From a phage, in sequence record PZ386965.1: 64,000 nt of DNA; one strand, written 5' to 3'. Of this stretch, positions 1,867 through 38,818 are shown in pieces; the stretch's first letter is position 1, and each line of letters opens with the position of its first letter. The notes beneath the pieces were generated by a model that was not told the DNA's origin, searched no databases, and saw only the letters and a program-made list of their open reading frames with translations. Position numbers and translations under genes: made by a program.

Positions 1867-3849
1867 ATGTCACTTCTCTCTCCGGGCGTTGAGCTCAAAG
1901 AAACTACCGTACAGAGTACTGTAGTTAATAACTCCACTGGTACTGCTGCCCTGGCTGGAAAATTCCAATGGGGACCTGCATTCCAGATTAAACAAATCAC
2001 TGATGAAGTTGCATTGGTTGATATGTTTGGTACTCCTAATACGGATACAGCAGATTATTTCATGTCTGCTATGAACTTCCTTCAATATGGTAATGACCTT
2101 CGTGTTGTACGCGCAGTTGATCGTGATACTGCTAAGAACTCATCTCCTGTAGCAGGCAATATTGAATTCACAATCTCTGCAGCCGGTAGTAACTATGCGG
2201 TTGGTGATAAAATTATCGTTAAGTATTTGACCGAAACTGTTGAAGCAGATGGTTATGTCACTTCAGTTGATGTCGATGGTAAAATTCTTAACATTTATAT
2301 CCCAACCGGTAAAATTATTGCTCGTGCAAAAGAAATTAATGAATATCCGGCATTGGGTTCTAACTGGACCGCCGAAGTTGCCAGTTCTTCTTCTGGACTC
2401 TCTGGCGTTATTACAATTGGTTCTATCGTAACCGATTCGGGTATTCTGTTGACTGAAGTTGAAACTTCTGAAGAAGCTATTACTTCTCTAACTTTCCAAG
2501 AATCTATTAAAAAATATGGTGTACCAGGCGTAGTTGCTCTTTATCCTGGTGAACTTGGCGACCAGCTCGAAATTGAAATCGTATCTAAAGCAGACTATGA
2601 CAAAGGTGCTTCAGCTCAGTTAAAAATTTATCCTGATGGCGGTACTCGTGCATCTACTGCTAAAGCAATCTTTGGATATGGCCCACAAACTGATGACCAA
2701 TATGCAATTATCGTTCGTCGTAACGATGCTGTAGTCCAGAGCGTAGTTCTTTCTACTAAACGCGGTGAACGAGATATTTATGGTAGCAATATCTTCATTG
2801 ATGATTTCTTTGCTAAAGGCGCAAGCAATTATATTTTCGCTACGGCACAAGGTTGGCCAAAAGGTTTCTCTGGCGTAATCAAACTGAGTGGTGGCTTATC
2901 ATCTAATGAAACGGTTGACGCTGGTGATTTAATGGAAGCTTGGGATTTGTTTGCTGACCGCGAATCTGTTAATGCGCAGTTGTTTATTGCCGGTTCTTGT
3001 GCAGGTGAATCTTTAGAAGTTGCTTCTACAGTTCAGAAACATGTTGTAGCAATTGGTGATTCTCGTCAAGATTGCTTGGTTCTTTGCTCACCGCCACGTT
3101 CAACTATAGTCGGTATTCCTGTTAATCGTGCAGTTGATAATCTGGTTGATTGGCGTACTGCGTCAGGAACTTACACCGATAATAACTTTAATGTAAGTTC
3201 TACTTATGCTGCTATTGATGGTAACTATAAATATCAATACGACAAATATAATGACGTGAATCGTTGGGTTCCATTAGCTGCTGATATCGCCGGTCTTTGT
3301 GCTCGCACAGATAATATTTCTCAGCCTTGGATGTCTCCGGCCGGTTATAACCGTGGACAAATTCTTAACGTTATTAAGCTTGCAATTGAAACTCGTCAAC
3401 CACAACGTGATCGTTTGTATCAGGAAGCTATTAACCCTGTTACTGGTACTGGTGGTGATGGATATGTTCTGTATGGTGATAAAACTGCCACTTCCGTTCC
3501 TTCACCATTTGACCGTATTAACGTTCGTCGTTTGTTCAATATGGTTAAAACGAACATTGGTTCAGCATCTAAATATCGCCTGTTTGAATTGAACAACGCA
3601 TTTACCCGTTCTTCTTTCCGTACAGAGACTTCTCAATATCTACAGGGTATTAAAGCTCTCGGTGGTGTATATAACTTTAAAGTTGTTTGTGATACTACCA
3701 ATAACACCCCAGCAGTTATCGACCGTAATGAATTTGTAGCTACTTTCTACTTACAACCTGCCCGCTCGATAAATTATATTACGTTGAACTTTGTAGCAAC
3801 AGCAACTGGTGCCGATTTCGACGAACTGATTGGTGCTGTAGGTGGTTAA
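1867..3849 (+). CDS. 18: tail sheath protein (gp18)
   Basis: 660 aa, T4 gp18-like length and sequence; TATAAATA late promoter upstream. Confidence 0.95.
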   Translation: MSLLSPGVELKETTVQSTVVNNSTGTAALAGKFQWGPAFQIKQITDEVALVDMFGTPNTDTADYFMSAMNFLQYGNDLRVVRAVDRDTAKNSSPVAGNIEFTISAAGSNYAVGDKIIVKYLTETVEADGYVTSVDVDGKILNIYIPTGKIIARAKEINEYPALGSNWTAEVASSSSGLSGVITIGSIVTDSGILLTEVETSEEAITSLTFQESIKKYGVPGVVALYPGELGDQLEIEIVSKADYDKGASAQLKIYPDGGTRASTAKAIFGYGPQTDDQYAIIVRRNDAVVQSVVLSTKRGERDIYGSNIFIDDFFAKGASNYIFATAQGWPKGFSGVIKLSGGLSSNETVDAGDLMEAWDLFADRESVNAQLFIAGSCAGESLEVASTVQKHVVAIGDSRQDCLVLCSPPRSTIVGIPVNRAVDNLVDWRTASGTYTDNNFNVSSTYAAIDGNYKYQYDKYNDVNRWVPLAADIAGLCARTDNISQPWMSPAGYNRGQILNVIKLAIETRQPQRDRLYQEAINPVTGTGGDGYVLYGDKTATSVPSPFDRINVRRLFNMVKTNIGSASKYRLFELNNAFTRSSFRTETSQYLQGIKALGGVYNFKVVCDTTNNTPAVIDRNEFVATFYLQPARSINYITLNFVATATGADFDELIGAVGG

Positions 3850-3881
3850 TAAGACGCCTGATGGGCTATTTCGGTAGCCCA

Positions 3882-3889
3882 TATAAATA
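3882..3889 (+). promoter_or_regulatory. T4 late promoter for gene 19
   Basis: TATAAATA immediately after a GC hairpin. Confidence 0.65.
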
Positions 3890-3961
3890 TACTATATCGT
3901 TTAAAAATTAATTCTATGGGCCTCCGGTTAATCCTAAGCCCATATTACTACAGAGGCTAAT

Positions 3962-4453
3962 ATGTTTGTAGATGACGTAACTCGCGCCTTCGAATCTGGT
4001 GATTTCGCTCGCCCTAACCTGTTCGAAGTAGAAATCTCTTATCTTGGGCAAAACTTTAGCTTCCAGTGTCGTGCTACGGCTCTTCCTGCTGCGATCGTTG
4101 AAAAGGTTCCTGTTTCTTATATGAACCGTAAAATTAACGTGGCCGGTGATCGTACATTCGATGATTGGACTATTACAGTAATGAACGATGATGCTCATAG
4201 CATTCGTCAGAAATTTGTTGATTGGCAAGGTATTGCAGCAGGACAAGGTAATGAAATTACCGGTGGTAAACCTGCTGAATATAAAAAGACTGCTATCGTT
4301 CGTCAATTTGCTCGTGATGCTAAAACGGTCACTAAAGAAGTTGAAATTGTTGGCTTGTGGCCTACTAACGTCGGTGAAGTATCTCTTGATTGGGATTCGA
4401 ATAACGAGATTGAAACGTTCGAAGTAACTCTTGCTCTTGATTGGTGGGAATAA
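3962..4453 (+). CDS. 19: tail tube protein (gp19)
   Basis: 163 aa, matches T4 gp19 length; late promoter upstream. Confidence 0.93.
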   Translation: MFVDDVTRAFESGDFARPNLFEVEISYLGQNFSFQCRATALPAAIVEKVPVSYMNRKINVAGDRTFDDWTITVMNDDAHSIRQKFVDWQGIAAGQGNEITGGKPAEYKKTAIVRQFARDAKTVTKEVEIVGLWPTNVGEVSLDWDSNNEIETFEVTLALDWWE

Positions 4454-4537: not shown

Positions 4538-6109
4538 ATGAAATTTAATATCTTAAGTTTGTTTGCTCCATGGGCAAAAATGGACGAACGTGATTACAAA
4601 GACCAAGAAAAAGAAAATTTAGAATCTATCACCACACCAAAATTAGACGACGGCGCTAAAGAATACGAAGTATCTGAAAATGAAGCACAGCAAACATATA
4701 ATGCTATGTTTCAGAGAATGTTCGGTAGTCAAGAACCAGGGCTCAAATCAACCCGTGAATTAATCGATACGTATCGAAATTTGATGACGAACTATGAAGT
4801 GGATAATGCAGTCTCTGAAATAGTTTCTGATGCTATCGTATATGAAGATGACACAGAAGTCGTTTCTATAAATTTAGACAACACAAAATTTAGTCCAAAT
4901 ATAAAATCAATGATGTTGGATGAATTTAACGAAGTGTTGAATCATTTATCTTTCCAACGTAAAGGTTCAGACCATTTTAGGCGTTGGTATGTAGATTCTC
5001 GAATTTTCTTCCATAAAATTATTGACCCTAAACGCCCTAAAGAAGGTATTAAAGAGCTTCGTCGTTTAGACCCACGTCAAGTTCAATATGTCCGTGAAGT
5101 TATTACAACCACTGAAGCCGGTGTTAAAATAGTCAAGGGTTATAAAGAATATTTCATTTATGACACATCACACGAATCTTATGCTTGTGATGGCCGCATA
5201 TATGAAGCTGGCACAAAAATAAAAATCCCTAAAGCCGCGATTGTTTATGCCCATTCTGGTTTAGTTGATTGTTGTGGTAAAAATATCATCGGTTATTTGC
5301 ATCGGGCTATTAAGCCGGCGAACCAATTAAAACTTCTTGAAGATGCCGTCGTAATTTATCGTATTACTCGTGCTCCTGATCGTCGTGTATGGTACGTTGA
5401 TACAGGTAATATGCCTTCAAGAAAAGCAGCAGAACATATGCAGCATGTTATGAATACGATGAAAAACCGTATTGCATATGATGCTACTACAGGCAAGATT
5501 AAAAACCAGCAGCATATTATGTCGATGACCGAAGATTATTGGTTACAACGACGTGATGGTAAAGCAGTAACAGAAGTTGACACATTACCAGGTGCAGATA
5601 ATACTGGAAATATGGAAGATGTACGTTGGTTCCGTAATGCGCTTTATATGGCTTTACGTATTCCTATTACCCGTATTCCAAGTGACCAAGGTGGTATACA
5701 GTTTGATGCTGGTACTTCTATTACACGAGATGAATTGTCATTTGGTAAATTTATTCGTGAGCTGCAACATAAATTTGAAGAGATATTCCTAGACCCGCTT
5801 AAAACTAATTTAATTCTTAAAGGAATTATTACAGAAGATGAGTGGAATGATGAAATAAATAATATTAAGATAAAATTTCATCGGGATAGTTATTTCTCGG
5901 AATTAAAGGATGCTGAGATTCTGGAGCGTCGCATTAATATGCTTCAGATGGCCGAACCATTTATTGGTAAATATATTTCTCACAGAACAGCTATGAAAGA
6001 TATTCTTCAGATGTCTGACGAGGAAATTGAACAAGAGGCTAAGCAAATTGAAGAAGAGTCGAAAGAGGCTCGTTTCCAAGACCCCGACCAAGAACAAGAG
6101 GATTTTTAA
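4538..6109 (+). CDS. 20: portal vertex protein (gp20)
   Basis: 523 aa, T4 gp20-like; position between gp19 and prohead core genes. Confidence 0.93.
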
Positions 6110-6348
6110 TGGACGATTTAATTCAAGCTATTAAATCAAACGACCTCGTTGCTACTCGAAAGTTTTTTGAAAGTGCAATGGCAGAAAAAGCGGTTCGTTT
6201 GATTGAAGCACGCAAAGCAGAAATCGCTTCTCAATTTTTGATTGAAGGCGAAGAACCTGAAGAAGAAGAAAAGAAAGCTAAAGCTTCGGAAGACGACGCT
6301 GATGAAGGCGATGACGACGAAGACGAAGATGATGAGGACGATGAATAA
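6109..6348 (+). CDS. 67: prohead core protein (gp67)
   Basis: 79 aa with highly acidic C-terminal tail, T4 gp67-like; start overlaps gp20 stop. Confidence 0.85.
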
Positions 6349-6773
6349 TGTATCTTATCCCTGAATCTTATGAATTGGTACTCGAAAATGTCGAAGCACT
6401 TATTCCTGAAGCACAGGGCCGAATCGATGCATTGTCTTCTGCTCTCGATATTGACGATATAAATACTATTATCGAGAACATGCTTGAAACTGAAACGGAT
6501 TTAGCTGTTGCAATGGCTTCCATTATTAATGAAGAACAGTTAAATGAGTTTATCGTTAAACATGTTTCTTCTCGTGGTGAAGTCACCCGCACTAAAGACC
6601 GTAAAACTCGTGAACGTAACGCGTTCCAAACCACTGGTCTTTCTAAAGCAAAACGTAGACAAATCGCTCGTAAGGTCGTTAAAGCTAAAAAAGCTAACCC
6701 TTCAGGCCAAGTTAAAGGCTTGCGTAAGCGTAAAAAGGCTCTTAAACGTCGTAAAGCATTAGGATTAAGCTAA
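6348..6773 (+). CDS. 68: prohead core protein (gp68)
   Basis: 141 aa with basic C-terminus, same size and position as T4 gp68. Confidence 0.85.
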
Positions 6774-7414
6774 TGAATAAACCCGAGTTACTTATTGAAA
6801 CTTGGGGTCAACCCGGTGAGATTATTGATGGCGTTCCAATGTTGGAATCTCATGATGGAAAAGATTCTGGCTTAAAACCAGGGCTTTATATAGAAGGTAT
6901 TTTTCTTCAGGCAGAGGTTGTTAACCGAAATAAACGTTTATATCCTAAACGCGTTTTGGAAAAAGCAGTAAGTGACTATATTAAAGAACAAGTCGCAACC
7001 AAACAAGCCCTTGGAGAATTAAACCATCCACCTCGTGCAAATGTTGACCCTATGCAAGCCGCTATCATTATTGAAGATATGTGGTGGAAAGGAAACGATG
7101 TATATGGACGTGCTAGAATTATTGAAGGCGACCATGGTCCCGGTGATAAATTAGCTGCTAATATACGAGCTGGTTGGATTCCAGGTGTTTCCTCTCGTGG
7201 TCTTGGTTCTTTAACCGACACCAATAAAGGGTACCGTATCGTGAACGAAGGATTTAAATTAACCGTCGGCGTAGATGCCGTATGGGGACCTTCTGCTCCA
7301 GATGCTTGGGTTACTCCTAAACAAATATCAGAATCAGAAAATTCGGTGGAAACCACCAAAAACAGTGCTGATGAAGCATTTAAAGCTCTCGCAGAGAGTT
7401 TAAAAGCATTATAA
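6773..7414 (+). CDS. 21: prohead core protease (gp21)
   Basis: 213 aa, T4 gp21 size and position. Confidence 0.92.
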   Translation: MNKPELLIETWGQPGEIIDGVPMLESHDGKDSGLKPGLYIEGIFLQAEVVNRNKRLYPKRVLEKAVSDYIKEQVATKQALGELNHPPRANVDPMQAAIIIEDMWWKGNDVYGRARIIEGDHGPGDKLAANIRAGWIPGVSSRGLGSLTDTNKGYRIVNEGFKLTVGVDAVWGPSAPDAWVTPKQISESENSVETTKNSADEAFKALAESLKAL

Positions 7415-7417
7415 ATA
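7410..7417 (+). promoter_or_regulatory. T4 late promoter for gene 22
   Basis: TATAAATA upstream of the ATG. Confidence 0.65.
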
Positions 7418-7447
7418 ATAATGTAATCTAAACCACAGGACACTAAA

Positions 7448-8260
7448 ATGATCAAAGAACAACTTTTGAAAGAAGCTCAGAACATCGAGACTTCAGTTGC
7501 TCTTAATAGTGTTTTCGAATCAGTAGAACTGTCTCCGGACGTTAAAGCTAATTTCAGCACTGTATTCGAAGCCACCGTTAAGCAGGAAGCAGTCAAACTG
7601 GCTGAATCTCATATCAAAGCCATCGCCGAAAAGGCTGAAGAAGAAGTTGAAAAGGCCAAAGAAGATGCTGAAGAGAAAGCTGATAAAAAATTGGCTGAAC
7701 AAGCTTCTAAATTCCTAGACCATCTTGCAAAAGAATGGCTCGCAGAAAACCAAATCGCAGTTGATAAAGGCATTAAAGCTGATTTGTTCGAATCCATGCT
7801 TGGTGGTCTGAAAGAACTGTTTGTTGAACATAACGTTGTTGTTCCAGAAGAATCTGTAGATGTTGTAGCAGAAATGGAAGAAGAGCTGGCCGAACATAAA
7901 GAAGAAACCGCTCGTTTGTTCGAAGAAGTTACCAAACGTGATGCATATATCAATTACGTTCAGCGTGAAACCGCTATTAATGAAAGCGTAAAAGACCTGA
8001 CTGAATCTCAGAAAGAAAAAGTTATTGGCCTGGTTGAAGGTATGGATTATTCTGACGCATTTGGTACTAAGTTAACTGCTATTGTAGAAATGGTTAAAGG
8101 TTCTACTAAAGAAGAAGCCGCTATTACCGAAAGTATAAATACAGTTGACAATGACGCTGCCGGTCTTAATTTTGTTGCCGAAGCAGTTGACACTACCACA
8201 ACTCAGGTAGAACAGAATTCTAATGTAAGTTTATATGCGAAAGTCGCATCTCGTTTCTAA
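7448..8260 (+). CDS. 22: prohead core scaffold protein (gp22)
   Basis: 270 aa, Glu/Ala/Lys-rich coiled-coil scaffold, T4 gp22 size. Confidence 0.92.
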   Translation: MIKEQLLKEAQNIETSVALNSVFESVELSPDVKANFSTVFEATVKQEAVKLAESHIKAIAEKAEEEVEKAKEDAEEKADKKLAEQASKFLDHLAKEWLAENQIAVDKGIKADLFESMLGGLKELFVEHNVVVPEESVDVVAEMEEELAEHKEETARLFEEVTKRDAYINYVQRETAINESVKDLTESQKEKVIGLVEGMDYSDAFGTKLTAIVEMVKGSTKEEAAITESINTVDNDAAGLNFVAEAVDTTTTQVEQNSNVSLYAKVASRF

Positions 8261-34762: not shown

Positions 34763-35059
34763 TTACATAAGAAGCAAACGTTCTACCGGAGTACCATCAA
34801 CAGAAATTACTTTATCAAGGCGGAAAGAACGCCACTGACCTAACTCGGTATCGAATGCTCGAACTGATTCACGAGGTTCATAACGAACTTCTGTTGCCGG
34901 ATTGTTATTTTCATATTTGACTTCAAGTTCATCGCGCGAAGCAAACATAGTGCGTACCTCGCCGTTAGCCTTTTCAAATACAACACAATGAACGCCTACA
35001 GACAGAATAGTTTTAATACGTTCACGAAGAACCATAGTTTCTTGTTCAGTTAAAATCAT
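34763..35059 (-). CDS. hypothetical protein (31.1/31.2 position)
   Basis: Track ORF begins at GTG; internal ATG gives 98 aa. Confidence 0.6.
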   Translation of the reverse strand: MILTEQETMVLRERIKTILSVGVHCVVFEKANGEVRTMFASRDELEVKYENNNPATEVRYEPRESVRAFDTELGQWRSFRLDKVISVDGTPVERLLLM

Positions 35060-35060
35060 A

Positions 35061-35642
35061 TTATTCACCACAAAAGTTTCGGATTTGTTCCCAATTCAGA
35101 GAACGAAGATTATTACGAGAGTACTGAATTACTTCAATACCGGCTTGTTTTAGAATGTCTGCCCAATTTTCAGGAGATCTGTCATATAATTCTGCATATA
35201 CAACCTTTTTAATACCTGACTGTGTAATAGCTTTAGTGCAATCAGGACATGGAGAAAGCGTCGTATACAACGTAGCACCTTCAATAGAATTACCTTTACG
35301 AGCTGCAAACAAAATTGCATTCAATTCCGCATGGATTTCATTATTAGCAGACCATGCACTATGAGCGGCCCGATGTTCTTTAGCCAAAACAAAATTATCC
35401 ACCCGTCCAAATGCTGTAGTGCCTTCTTTATGCCCAGCAACGATGACCGGGCTTGGTTTATTCTTCAACCAACCGTTTTCGGATGCATGTTCGCAACAGT
35501 TTGTACCACCTGAAGGAGAGCCATTATAACCTGTAGAAATAATGCGTCCATCTTTTTCAATGACGGCACCAACTTTCCATGAACAACATTTTGATTCTTG
35601 AGAAATCAGATAAGCAATCTGAAGATATGTGCTAGCTTTCAT
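35061..35642 (-). CDS. cd: dCMP deaminase
   Basis: 193 aa, same as T4 Cd; HAE and PCxxC zinc-binding deaminase motifs. Confidence 0.93.
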   Translation of the reverse strand: MKASTYLQIAYLISQESKCCSWKVGAVIEKDGRIISTGYNGSPSGGTNCCEHASENGWLKNKPSPVIVAGHKEGTTAFGRVDNFVLAKEHRAAHSAWSANNEIHAELNAILFAARKGNSIEGATLYTTLSPCPDCTKAITQSGIKKVVYAELYDRSPENWADILKQAGIEVIQYSRNNLRSLNWEQIRNFCGE

Positions 35643-36634
35643 TATTGAACCTTATTAATATGAGTTAACAGCTCTTTAGTTTGTTCCCAACTGATGCACG
35701 CATCGGTAACGGAAACGCCATAGGACATATTATCAGAAATTTTTTGATTTCCTTCATGTAGGAATGATTCTATCATAATTCCTTTGACCAAATCATTAGC
35801 TGCTAAATTTTTACCAATACCAATTTGATTGCTATAATGCCCAGCAGCGTTTGCATGGCTACAGTCAACCATTACATAATGATTCAGACCTACGGCCCTT
35901 GCTTTGTTAGAAGCTTCTTGAATATCAGAAGAATGATAGTTCGGGCCATTGGTCCCGCCACGCAATACGATATGCGTATTCTGATTACCTTCAGCTTCAA
36001 CAATGCCTACAGTACCATCGACGTCCATACCCATATACCGATGAGGCCAGGCGGCACTATACATCGCGTCTGTAGCTACTTTAATAGAACCATTGGTTGC
36101 GTTCTTGAAGCCTACGCACATCGGTAGACCTGAAGCAATTTCACGATGTGTCTGACTTTCAGTCGTACGGGCGCCAATAGCAACCCATGAGAAAATACCA
36201 GAAAGATACTTAATCGTGAATGGGTCTAATACTTCAGTTGCTAATGGAAGTCCCATACGTAGAAGTTTACGACACAATGTTCGTGCAACTATAAGACCGT
36301 GGTTCATATCAAAACTTCCGTCAAGATATGGATCATTTACAAGACCTTTCCAACCTACGGTAGTTCGAGGCTTTTCAAAATAAACGCGCATCACTAACAG
36401 AACATTAGGAAGACGAGTTTGAAGTTCAGCCAGACGTTTGCCGTATTCAACAGCAGCAATAGGGTCATGAATTGAACAAGGACCTACAACAATAAGTTTG
36501 CGTGGGTCTTCACCATTCATAATCGAATTAACTTGTTCGCGATGAGAAGCCACTTGTGATGCGTAAGCTTCCGACAAAGGAATAATCTCAGCCAGTTCTT
36601 TTGGAGAAATAAGTTTTCCGACGACAGGTAACAT
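35642..36634 (-). CDS. 3-deoxy-D-arabino-heptulosonate-7-phosphate (DAHP) synthase, AroG/AroF-type
   Basis: 330 aa; LIVVGPCSIHD, RVYFEKPRTTVGWKGL and WVAIGARTTESQ blocks align with E. coli AroG; N-terminus about 8 residues shorter than AroG; not present in T4. Confidence 0.85.
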   Translation of the reverse strand: MLPVVGKLISPKELAEIIPLSEAYASQVASHREQVNSIMNGEDPRKLIVVGPCSIHDPIAAVEYGKRLAELQTRLPNVLLVMRVYFEKPRTTVGWKGLVNDPYLDGSFDMNHGLIVARTLCRKLLRMGLPLATEVLDPFTIKYLSGIFSWVAIGARTTESQTHREIASGLPMCVGFKNATNGSIKVATDAMYSAAWPHRYMGMDVDGTVGIVEAEGNQNTHIVLRGGTNGPNYHSSDIQEASNKARAVGLNHYVMVDCSHANAAGHYSNQIGIGKNLAANDLVKGIMIESFLHEGNQKISDNMSYGVSVTDACISWEQTKELLTHINKVQ

Positions 36635-36754
36635 AACAATCCTTAGGAGATATAAACAGATTCTGATTCAACAATACCTTTAACCGGATTAGACAGGCTA
36701 AGTTGGTAGTGCTCAGATTTATGACCATTCTCGATAGTAATGAGATAGCTCTCG

Positions 36755-36991
36755 TTATAGTGTTCCATATACTCGAGTTGCTTCAACAAGACCATCACTG
36801 CCTAATTTAAGATTAGTAATTTGGTCACCATCTTTAGGATTTACAATTATGAGAAAAGAACGTGGAGATTCTTGAATAACTCGTAATGTTGCATCCTGGA
36901 AACGTTCAGATACTTTATTAATCAAAGTCTGAGCGAACTCTTTTACTTTAACATGAAATTCTTGAAGCGTGATAGGTTTTTCACTTAACAT
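36755..36991 (-). CDS. hypothetical protein (78 aa)
   Basis: ATG start; early promoter upstream. Confidence 0.5.
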   Translation of the reverse strand: MLSEKPITLQEFHVKVKEFAQTLINKVSERFQDATLRVIQESPRSFLIIVNPKDGDQITNLKLGSDGLVEATRVYGTL

Positions 36992-37020
36992 TCTGTTTTC
37001 CTCATTGTGTTGGTAGAGTC

Positions 37021-37050
37021 ATAGTATCACAACTCCACCATGTTGTAAAC
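37021..37050 (-). promoter_or_regulatory. T4-type early promoter for the 78-aa ORF / DAHP synthase / cd unit
   Basis: GTTTAC, 18-nt spacer, TACTAT. Confidence 0.55.
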
Positions 37051-37052
37051 CA

Positions 37053-37328
37053 TTAAATTGCTTTGCATTCAATTTTTTGTGTACCGAAATTGATATCACA
37101 TTGGATAACTAAATCGCCGTCAAGATCAAATACCACTATGACGTGTGCAGACCCAGGGAGAAGAGTAATAGCAATAGAATCTACTTGGTCCGGGAGCAAA
37201 GCATTGAGTACATGAGTTAGTTGAGCATGAACTCTGAGTTCGGCTGCATTATCAAGCACTTCAAACATATTATTAGCAATAATCTGACTGAAGACTACCT
37301 TTACAATTTCAGAATAAGTTGGGAACAT
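37053..37328 (-). CDS. hypothetical protein (91 aa)
   Basis: ATG start. Confidence 0.5.
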   Translation of the reverse strand: MFPTYSEIVKVVFSQIIANNMFEVLDNAAELRVHAQLTHVLNALLPDQVDSIAITLLPGSAHVIVVFDLDGDLVIQCDINFGTQKIECKAI

Positions 37329-37335
37329 AATTACC

Positions 37336-37731: not shown

Positions 37732-37732
<1 letters not shown>
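37541..37732 (-). CDS. hypothetical protein (63 aa)
   Basis: ATG start, directly downstream of pseT. Confidence 0.5.

Positions 37733-38818
<1,086 letters not shown>

Follow-up and report, generated by a model that had tools for sequence, protein, structure and literature searches.

The window analysed here is the 64,000-nucleotide stretch of phage DNA in sequence record PZ386965.1, and its minus strand carries, between homologs of the T4 genes cd.2 and cd, an open reading frame (ORF) for a DAHP synthase (3-deoxy-7-phosphoheptulonate synthase) whose inhibitor site differs from that of cellular homologs at positions fixed throughout a clade of phage proteins. The gene had been pointed out in an initial annotation made from the sequence alone, and both the ORF call and direct reading of the sequence confirmed its extent, the presence in the 330-residue protein of the three quoted motifs (LIVVGPCSIHD, RVYFEKPRTTVGWKGL and WVAIGARTTESQ), and the TAATG overlap, in which the DAHP synthase stop codon TAA (35644-35642) and the cd start codon ATG (35642-35640) have one base in common. 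An AAGGA close to the initiation codon is a plausible ribosome-binding site. No in-frame ATG, GTG or TTG was found between the preceding stop codon and the DAHP synthase ATG, so that no earlier in-frame start is possible and the short N-terminus of the protein is real. On the same strand the upstream order is cd.2, cd.3, two small ORFs and pseT, and cd is followed downstream by 31.1 (WYL_2), gp31 and rIII. The coordinates of the features are collected in Table 1.

Table 1. Features of the DAHP synthase locus, with positions in the window
Feature	Position	Strand	Basis
cd, dCMP deaminase, 193 aa (amino acids), downstream neighbour	35061..35642	-	PF00383, ORF, PhAPEC2 annotation
Right junction direct repeat ATAATGAAAGCTA, across DAHP synthase stop and cd start	35633..35645	-	
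DAHP synthase coding sequence (CDS), 330 aa, ATG start	35642..36634	-	ORF, Pfam, NCBIfam, PDB, phrog_5045, AlphaFold2 model
Spacer, cd.2 to DAHP synthase, 120 nucleotides (nt)	36635..36754	-	alignment of window, RB69 and PhAPEC2
Candidate ribosome-binding site AAGGA, 5 nt from DAHP synthase ATG	36640..36644	-	direct sequence reading (taAGGAttgttATG)
Small ORF of 41 aa, MEHYNESYLITIENGHKSEHYQLSLSNPVKGIVESESVYIS, occupying the spacer and overlapping the cd.2 end	36643..36768	-	phrog_15876
Left junction direct repeat ATAACGAGAGCTA (ATAATGAGAGCTA in PhAPEC2), like the 5' end of cd	36746..36758	-	
cd.2 homolog (DUF7320), upstream neighbour	36755..36991	-	PF24005, PhAPEC2 annotation
Putative sigma-70-type early promoter in the cd.3/cd.2 gap (61 nt)	37021..37049	-	pattern scan; G-TTTACA, 17 nt, TG-n-TACTAT
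cd.3 homolog (DUF7355)	37053-37328	-	
pseT, polynucleotide kinase/phosphatase	37732-38631	-	

The product is a class I-alpha DAHP synthase, because it matches the profiles of the family, takes up its fold in an AlphaFold2 model and retains invariant metal and substrate ligands. The class I identity proposed initially is supported by scores well above the Pfam and NCBIfam cut-offs: PF00793 (DAHP_synth_1) matched residues 36-323 with E = 5.6e-75 (252.1 bits versus a cut-off of 25.5), the aroFGH equivalog TIGR00034 matched over the full length (428.4 bits versus 173.2), and the subfamily PRK12755 scored 456 bits versus 343. The label "AroG-type", however, is imprecise and wrong in detail. The cut-off of the AroG-specific model NF006723 was missed (364.8 bits versus 568), as was that of the AroH subfamily NF009396 (386.3 bits versus 463), and the top match among solved structures was the Tyr-sensitive AroF of Escherichia coli (6agm; E = 8e-105, 354 bits, 51% identity), ahead of a Neisseria DAH7PS (320 bits) and E. 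coli AroG (310 bits). The position that sets specificity in AroG, S211, is Gly202 in the window protein, as in AroF.

None of the four metal ligands, C53, H260, E289 and D311 (Cys61, His268, Glu302 and Asp326 of AroG), varies among the 25 phage and 95 cellular sequences. The ten residues that bind phosphoenolpyruvate (PEP) and erythrose-4-phosphate (E4P) are kept in both groups as well: R83, K88, P89, R90, T91, G154, A155, R156, K177 and R225, corresponding in AroG numbering to R92, KPRT 97-100, G163-A164-R165, K186 and R234, with T91 as the sole near-exception (Ser in 3 of the 95 cellular sequences). The catalytic ligands expected from the initial annotation were thus found intact when scored in the alignment. 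The AlphaFold2 monomer model, built from a 46-sequence alignment, has a mean predicted local distance difference test (pLDDT) score of 93.5 and retains the beta6a/beta6b hairpin of the (beta/alpha)8 barrel (strands 198-203 and 209-214), and a Foldseek comparison of the model with the type I-alpha DAH7PS structures 4HSO, 1QR7 and 8E0U gave a template modelling (TM) score of 0.95 and a root-mean-square deviation of 1.4 Å. We infer enzyme activity from these features, and on balance consider the protein probably a catalytically competent, metal-dependent DAHP synthase, a grading that applies to the explanation developed below as a whole.

A 2.4-kb region at this locus is 99.1% identical in nucleotide sequence to Escherichia phage vB_EcoM_PhAPEC2 (PhAPEC2) and 97-98% identical to many further phages of Mosigvirus, the genus of RB69-like T-even phages to which the window belongs. 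The protein matches phrog_5045 of PHROGs v4 (E = 9.9e-182, 604 bits), its residues 1-330 aligning to positions 8-337 of the 341-position profile; the PHROG is classed under "moron, auxiliary metabolic gene and host takeover". With this family and a DAHP synthase annotation in more than 100 phage records, the novelty implied by the initial annotation was overstated; the gene is already known by annotation, and what was not found in public records is an analysis of its regulatory site or its role. In each of the 213 phage records with the gene, the ORF spans 80% or more of the query. Roughly 140 records hold a copy at least 95% identical, compared with roughly 145 that hold PseT at the Mosigvirus level (at least 90% identity), the PseT tblastn denominator for T4-like phages being only rough because homologs of this polynucleotide kinase/phosphatase (PNKP) occur in many unrelated phages; the two counts indicate that the gene is nearly universal in the genus, with RB69 an exception.

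A search space of about 5.8 billion proteins yielded some 25 cluster representatives from T4-like phage genomes and contigs, 319-343 residues long and 55-98% identical, beneath which there is a clear break before the cellular homologs start (341-388 residues, 55% identity or less). DAHP synthases from "UNVERIFIED Bacteriophage sp." gut scaffolds and Acinetobacter "phage MD-2021a" contigs were not used, their viral origin being uncertain. The phage group was monophyletic in 100 of 100 bootstraps of a neighbour-joining tree and had no particular cellular sister. As judged from these comparisons, the gene belongs to an old, phage-adapted lineage in T4-like phages of Enterobacterales. Recent capture from a host was ruled out by this monophyly without a specific cellular sister together with the GC content, which is 41% in the gene and 38% in the window compared with 52% in E. 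coli aroF.

Alignment confirmed the reported N-terminus about 8 residues shorter than that of AroG; it is 9 residues shorter than that of AroF, and the same form is common to all 25 clade members, which together with the lack of an upstream start rules out an annotation artefact. The absent stretch takes in AroG D6 and D7 (AroF N7 and N8) and leaves only an equivalent of I10 (L2). In the AroG structure 1KFL, this N-terminal segment (about residues 3-11, with D6, D7 and I10) extends to the neighbouring subunit and closes its inhibitor pocket.

The remaining clade-specific changes point to the same part of the protein. All 330 columns of the alignment were scanned for positions fixed in at least 96% of the 25 phage sequences and fixed to another residue in at least 90% of the 95 closest cellular homologs. 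Only six columns passed, each of them within the inhibitor site or its hairpin. Five are inhibitor-site residues, namely I141, K142, G146, P171 and Y200 in place of AroG P150, Q151, D155, S180 and F209; 24-25 of the 25 phage sequences have the new residue at each position, and the canonical residues stand in 88-94 of the 95 cellular homologs. The sixth, A214 in place of AroG T223, is in the beta6b strand of the regulatory hairpin and adjoins V221. All six substitutions are invariant (24-25 of 25) although pairwise identity within the clade falls to 53%. On this alignment the catalytic machinery is untouched, and every clade-defining change maps to the allosteric site.

Several of these positions are known from work on feedback resistance. 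AroG P150L, S180F, F209A/S and V221A are listed as feedback-resistant, Q151 and S180 of AroG (Q152 and S181 of AroF) touch the main chain of the inhibitor, and AroG D155 (AroF D156) is a salt-bridge residue that steadies the inhibitor site (PMC9529685). Nor does the phage protein have the AroF form of the site: Gly202 and the top structural match are those of AroF, yet Q152 is replaced by Lys, S181 by Pro, and N8 is absent. Loss of the canonical feedback by Phe, Tyr and Trp is therefore well supported, although it is something that we infer. The feedback insensitivity suggested initially from the N-terminus alone gains much stronger support from the six clade-fixed substitutions. We consider it slightly better than an even bet that these proteins form a distinct, ancient DAHP synthase subfamily of T4-like Enterobacterales phages, in which the feedback pocket was rebuilt by N-terminal truncation and six fixed substitutions so as to leave the enzyme deregulated or, in a bolder version, responsive to a new effector of the infected state.

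A second, independently derived phage DAHP synthase was observed in the unrelated 79-kb Aeromonas phage HJ05 (locus 5899-7062; 387 residues, 38% identity). Its catalytic residues are intact, and it is non-canonical at the positions equivalent to AroG 150, 151, 155, 180 (also Pro), 209, 211 and 221. The gene adjoining it (locus 7196-7546) encodes an Acb2/Tad1-hairpin protein, similar to anti-CBASS/Thoeris sponges.

The gene had been described as lying downstream of an early promoter at about 37021-37050, and this is supported by conservation of the site. The promoter-like sequence is identical in RB69 and PhAPEC2 and aligns with the cd.3/cd.2 gap of T4, where the T4 record puts the early promoter Pe133295. 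No terminator-like site was found on the minus strand from this sequence to cd. Given the conserved promoter position and the lack of a terminator-like site before cd, early co-transcription of cd.2, the DAHP synthase gene and cd is likely. A link to the folate pathway through adjacent td and frd genes, also put forward initially, was not borne out: in PhAPEC2 these genes are about 9.4-10.8 kb upstream, past annotated terminators and many genes. At that distance proximity gives the folate idea no support, and a folate purpose of the DAHP synthase is unsupported speculation.

A three-way alignment of the window with RB69 and PhAPEC2 shows that the spacer and the gene make up one 1113-nt cassette, absent from RB69. 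A 13-nt direct repeat, ATAA(C/T)GA(G/A)AGCTA, which is a copy of the cd start, stands at either end of the cassette, and the cd.2-cd junction of RB69 (RB69 locus about 6240-6260) falls exactly inside this repeat. The RB69 state looks like a deletion between the repeats, and the junction would be as expected for short-homology recombination, by either deletion or insertion. Divergence was compared between positions 34945-37334 of the window and four other loci. Copies of the cassette from Mosigvirus phages differ by about 1% (synonymous divergence, dS, of 0.004-0.02), the spacer as little as the gene, compared with 9.5% for cd.2 and about 4% for cd (dS 0.14-0.21) in the flanks. Divergence so far below that of the flanks suggests recent spread by recombination, the spread or sweep of the cassette being apparently younger than that of its surroundings.

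Genes for Seg- and Mob-type homing endonucleases flank the DAHP synthase gene in Klebsiella phage EI (locus coordinates 981-1575 and 3510-4048) and Proteus phage PM2 (1106-1822), and such endonucleases could drive co-conversion of the locus. The small ORF in the spacer matches phrog_15876 over its full length (E = 1.9e-32), is an annotated CDS in phage ST0 and belongs to a recognised phage family of unknown function. That this spacer ORF (41 or 51 residues) might be a relic of T4 cd.1 was considered and rejected, as BLASTP found no similarity and the ORF matched a PHROG of its own instead.

The arrangement of a pseT/cd.x segment, the DAHP synthase gene and cd is common to six genera in the synteny comparison, which places the gene at this locus in Mosigvirus, Klebsiella phage EI, Kanagawavirus (PEi20 and Entb_45), Bragavirus PM2, Winklervirus X20 and Kagamiyamavirus EcS1. 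T4, as claimed initially, has no DAHP synthase; cd.1 fills the slot, so that the position described as that of cd.1-cd.5 can be narrowed to the place of cd.1 in T4, with cd.2 on one side and cd on the other. In RB69, the type Mosigvirus, the gene is absent and cd.2 is joined straight to cd. A homolog of T4 cd.1 stands immediately downstream of the DAHP synthase gene in EcS1 (locus 3483-3818, 39% identity) and X20 (locus 3498-3839, 30% identity), which indicates an older order of cd.2, DAHP synthase, cd.1 and cd, from which Mosigvirus lost cd.1 and T4 lost the DAHP synthase gene.

Two further observations concern the neighbourhood of cd. In the window cd is followed directly by the 31.1 homolog (WYL_2 / SH3 beta-barrel; window 34763-35642 for the pair), without the gene 31.2 that separates the two in T4 and PEi20. 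In the RB69 record the annotated cd has 510 nt (locus 5743-6252, about 169 residues), compared with 193 residues in the window and T4, and a 76-nt unannotated gap stands ahead of 31.1; a truncated C-terminus, or a frameshift in the record, could account for the short cd of RB69.

These results lead us to favour, with somewhat better than even confidence, the explanation that the phage makes an early-expressed DAHP synthase which is no longer inhibited by aromatic amino acids. DAHP synthase catalyses the flux-controlling entry step on the way to aromatic amino acids, folate, quinones and siderophores. In the mechanism that we propose, the promoter in the cd.3/cd.2 gap would drive early transcription of the gene, which would be translated jointly with cd, and the enzyme would condense PEP and E4P to DAHP. 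Since Phe, Tyr and Trp would fail to shut the phage enzyme off, the shikimate pathway would stay fed with carbon during the shut-off of host expression, when the host isozymes are feedback-inhibited. Chorismate-derived products would thereby be sustained for phage production, among them aromatic amino acids and possibly precursors of folate or quinones. The data are compatible both with a need for aromatic amino acids, to build the large amount of protein in a phage burst, and with a need for folate or other chorismate-derived cofactors.

Several points weigh against this explanation. A number of pocket residues are retained, namely P138 (AroF P148), D137, L170, V212 and Gly202, which leaves room for residual or altered regulation. 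Conservation of the six new residues is strict, with no sign of drift, and is equally compatible with a re-purposed and a disabled site. The ratio of nonsynonymous to synonymous substitution rates (dN/dS) among the Mosigvirus copies is 0.4-1.8, as calculated from only 5-13 substitutions per pair, too few to speak for or against selection. A general promoter scan of the region returned 15 sites compared with 15.9 expected from shuffled sequence; the case for the promoter thus rests on position and conservation and not on the scan score. Both RB69 and T4 do without the gene, and the DAHP synthase is consequently not essential. Finally, neither enzymology nor a functional paper was found in the literature for any member of the phage clade.

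One alternative is that the gene encodes an ordinary feedback-regulated isozyme, in all likelihood Tyr-sensitive like AroF, which merely adds DAHP synthase capacity during infection. The Tyr-sensitive AroF is the top solved match, the specificity position is Gly as in AroF, the equivalents of AroF P148, D147 and L180 are kept and the beta6a/beta6b hairpin is present; against this, the residues that hydrogen-bond to the inhibitor main chain (AroF Q152 and S181, AroG Q151 and S180) are now Lys and Pro, AroF D156, P151 and F210 are replaced too, and the nine N-terminal residues with N7 and N8 are missing in 25 of 25 clade members. Single changes at several such AroG positions abolish inhibition (PMC9529685), and we regard an intact AroF-like regulation as unlikely. 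We are similarly doubtful that the pocket was re-tuned, either to a new effector, for instance a phage-specific metabolite or an anionic intermediate of the pathway, or else to a new protein contact. A dead site would be expected to drift, and the six positions are invariant in 24-25 of 25 sequences at identities down to 53%; moreover, the change from Gln to Lys brings in a positive charge, while the acidic AroG D6 and D7 are gone. However, the sequence yields no candidate ligand, the conservation could equally reflect packing, a pocket held shut or the stability of the tetramer, and the pocket between subunits is not visible in a monomer model.

The structure of the locus raises the different possibility that the gene is a passenger in a recombination-prone region rich in homing endonucleases, with little or no benefit to the phage. 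Consistent with it are the repeat that bounds the cassette, the precise absence of the cassette from RB69, the lack of the gene in T4, the low divergence of the cassette compared with cd.2 and cd, which suggests recent spread by recombination, and the Seg and Mob genes alongside in phages EI and PM2. Such a passenger is nevertheless hard to reconcile with an ORF intact in 213 of 213 records, catalytic residues invariant at identities down to 53%, a single locus shared by six genera and presence in about 140 of about 145 Mosigvirus-level records, and we judge it decidedly unlikely. Least credible, and in our opinion very improbable, is a shift of substrate, for instance to a KDO8P-synthase-like reaction with a pentose phosphate that supplies the arabinose on hydroxymethylcytosine (hmC) DNA. 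The PF00793 fold is common to DAHP and KDO8P synthases, and the Mosigvirus RB69 has arabinosyl-hmC (PMC6024577); but RB69, in which this modification was found, lacks the gene, the KPRT motif, the metal-binding Cys and all E4P/PEP ligands are invariant, and the score is far over the aroFGH cut-off. A link of the gene to arabinosyl-hmC was ruled out on the ground that RB69 makes the modification without it.

The phage DAHP synthase can be set beside several known enzymes and genes. Metal and substrate ligands, the (beta/alpha)8 barrel with its beta6a/beta6b hairpin and the specificity Gly are common to the phage protein and E. coli AroF (6AGM/6AGL). The phage protein differs in the shorter N-terminus without N7 and N8, in having I, K, G, P and Y for AroF P151, Q152, D156, S181 and F210, in deletions of 5 and 3 residues near the C-terminal third, and in a shorter C-terminus. 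With E. coli AroG (1KFL/1QR7) it shares the predicted fold (TM about 0.95) and presumably the chemistry, and differs in the Gly at S211 and in missing the AroG NCBIfam cut-off (365 versus 568). Engineered AroG variants (P150L, S180F, F209A/S and Q151 variants; PMC9529685) are altered at feedback positions where the phage clade is naturally substituted, but the phage residues I, K, G, P, Y and A are not the engineered ones, and the phage proteins have the N-terminal truncation besides. The members of phrog_5045 annotated in T4-like phages (PhAPEC2 YP_009056797.1, HX01, JS09, PEi20, EcS1, X20, PM2 and others) represent the same gene, with the synteny pseT...cd.2, DAHP synthase, (cd.1), cd and no structural difference, and their public records give only a name. 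The cyanophage auxiliary metabolic genes talC, zwf, gnd and psbA are comparable in that a lytic phage carries a host-type enzyme of central metabolism, acting at a flux-controlling step and expressed during infection; the present case differs in the pathway, here the entry to the shikimate pathway, in the host group and in the probable loss of allosteric control.

The initial statement that the gene has no defined role in phage biology agrees with the literature, in which no functional study of a phage DAHP synthase was found; the phiC120 genome paper mentions the domain in passing, and the Mosigvirus genome papers that we looked at make no mention of a DAHP synthase gene. Phage therapy and biocontrol are widely suggested uses of Mosigvirus phages, and nearly all of these phages carry this auxiliary metabolic gene. 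RB69, which lacks it, and its near-identical carrier relatives would form a ready natural knockout pair, and the clade constitutes a natural set of feedback-site substitutions of possible interest for engineering feedback-resistant DAHP synthases. If the enzyme is deregulated, or answers to a new effector instead, a shikimate-pathway auxiliary metabolic gene would for the first time have a defined mechanism in a coliphage that is open to genetics. An apparently unregulated copy in a lytic coliphage would also mean that T-even phages rewire the biosynthesis of amino acids and cofactors besides nucleotide metabolism.

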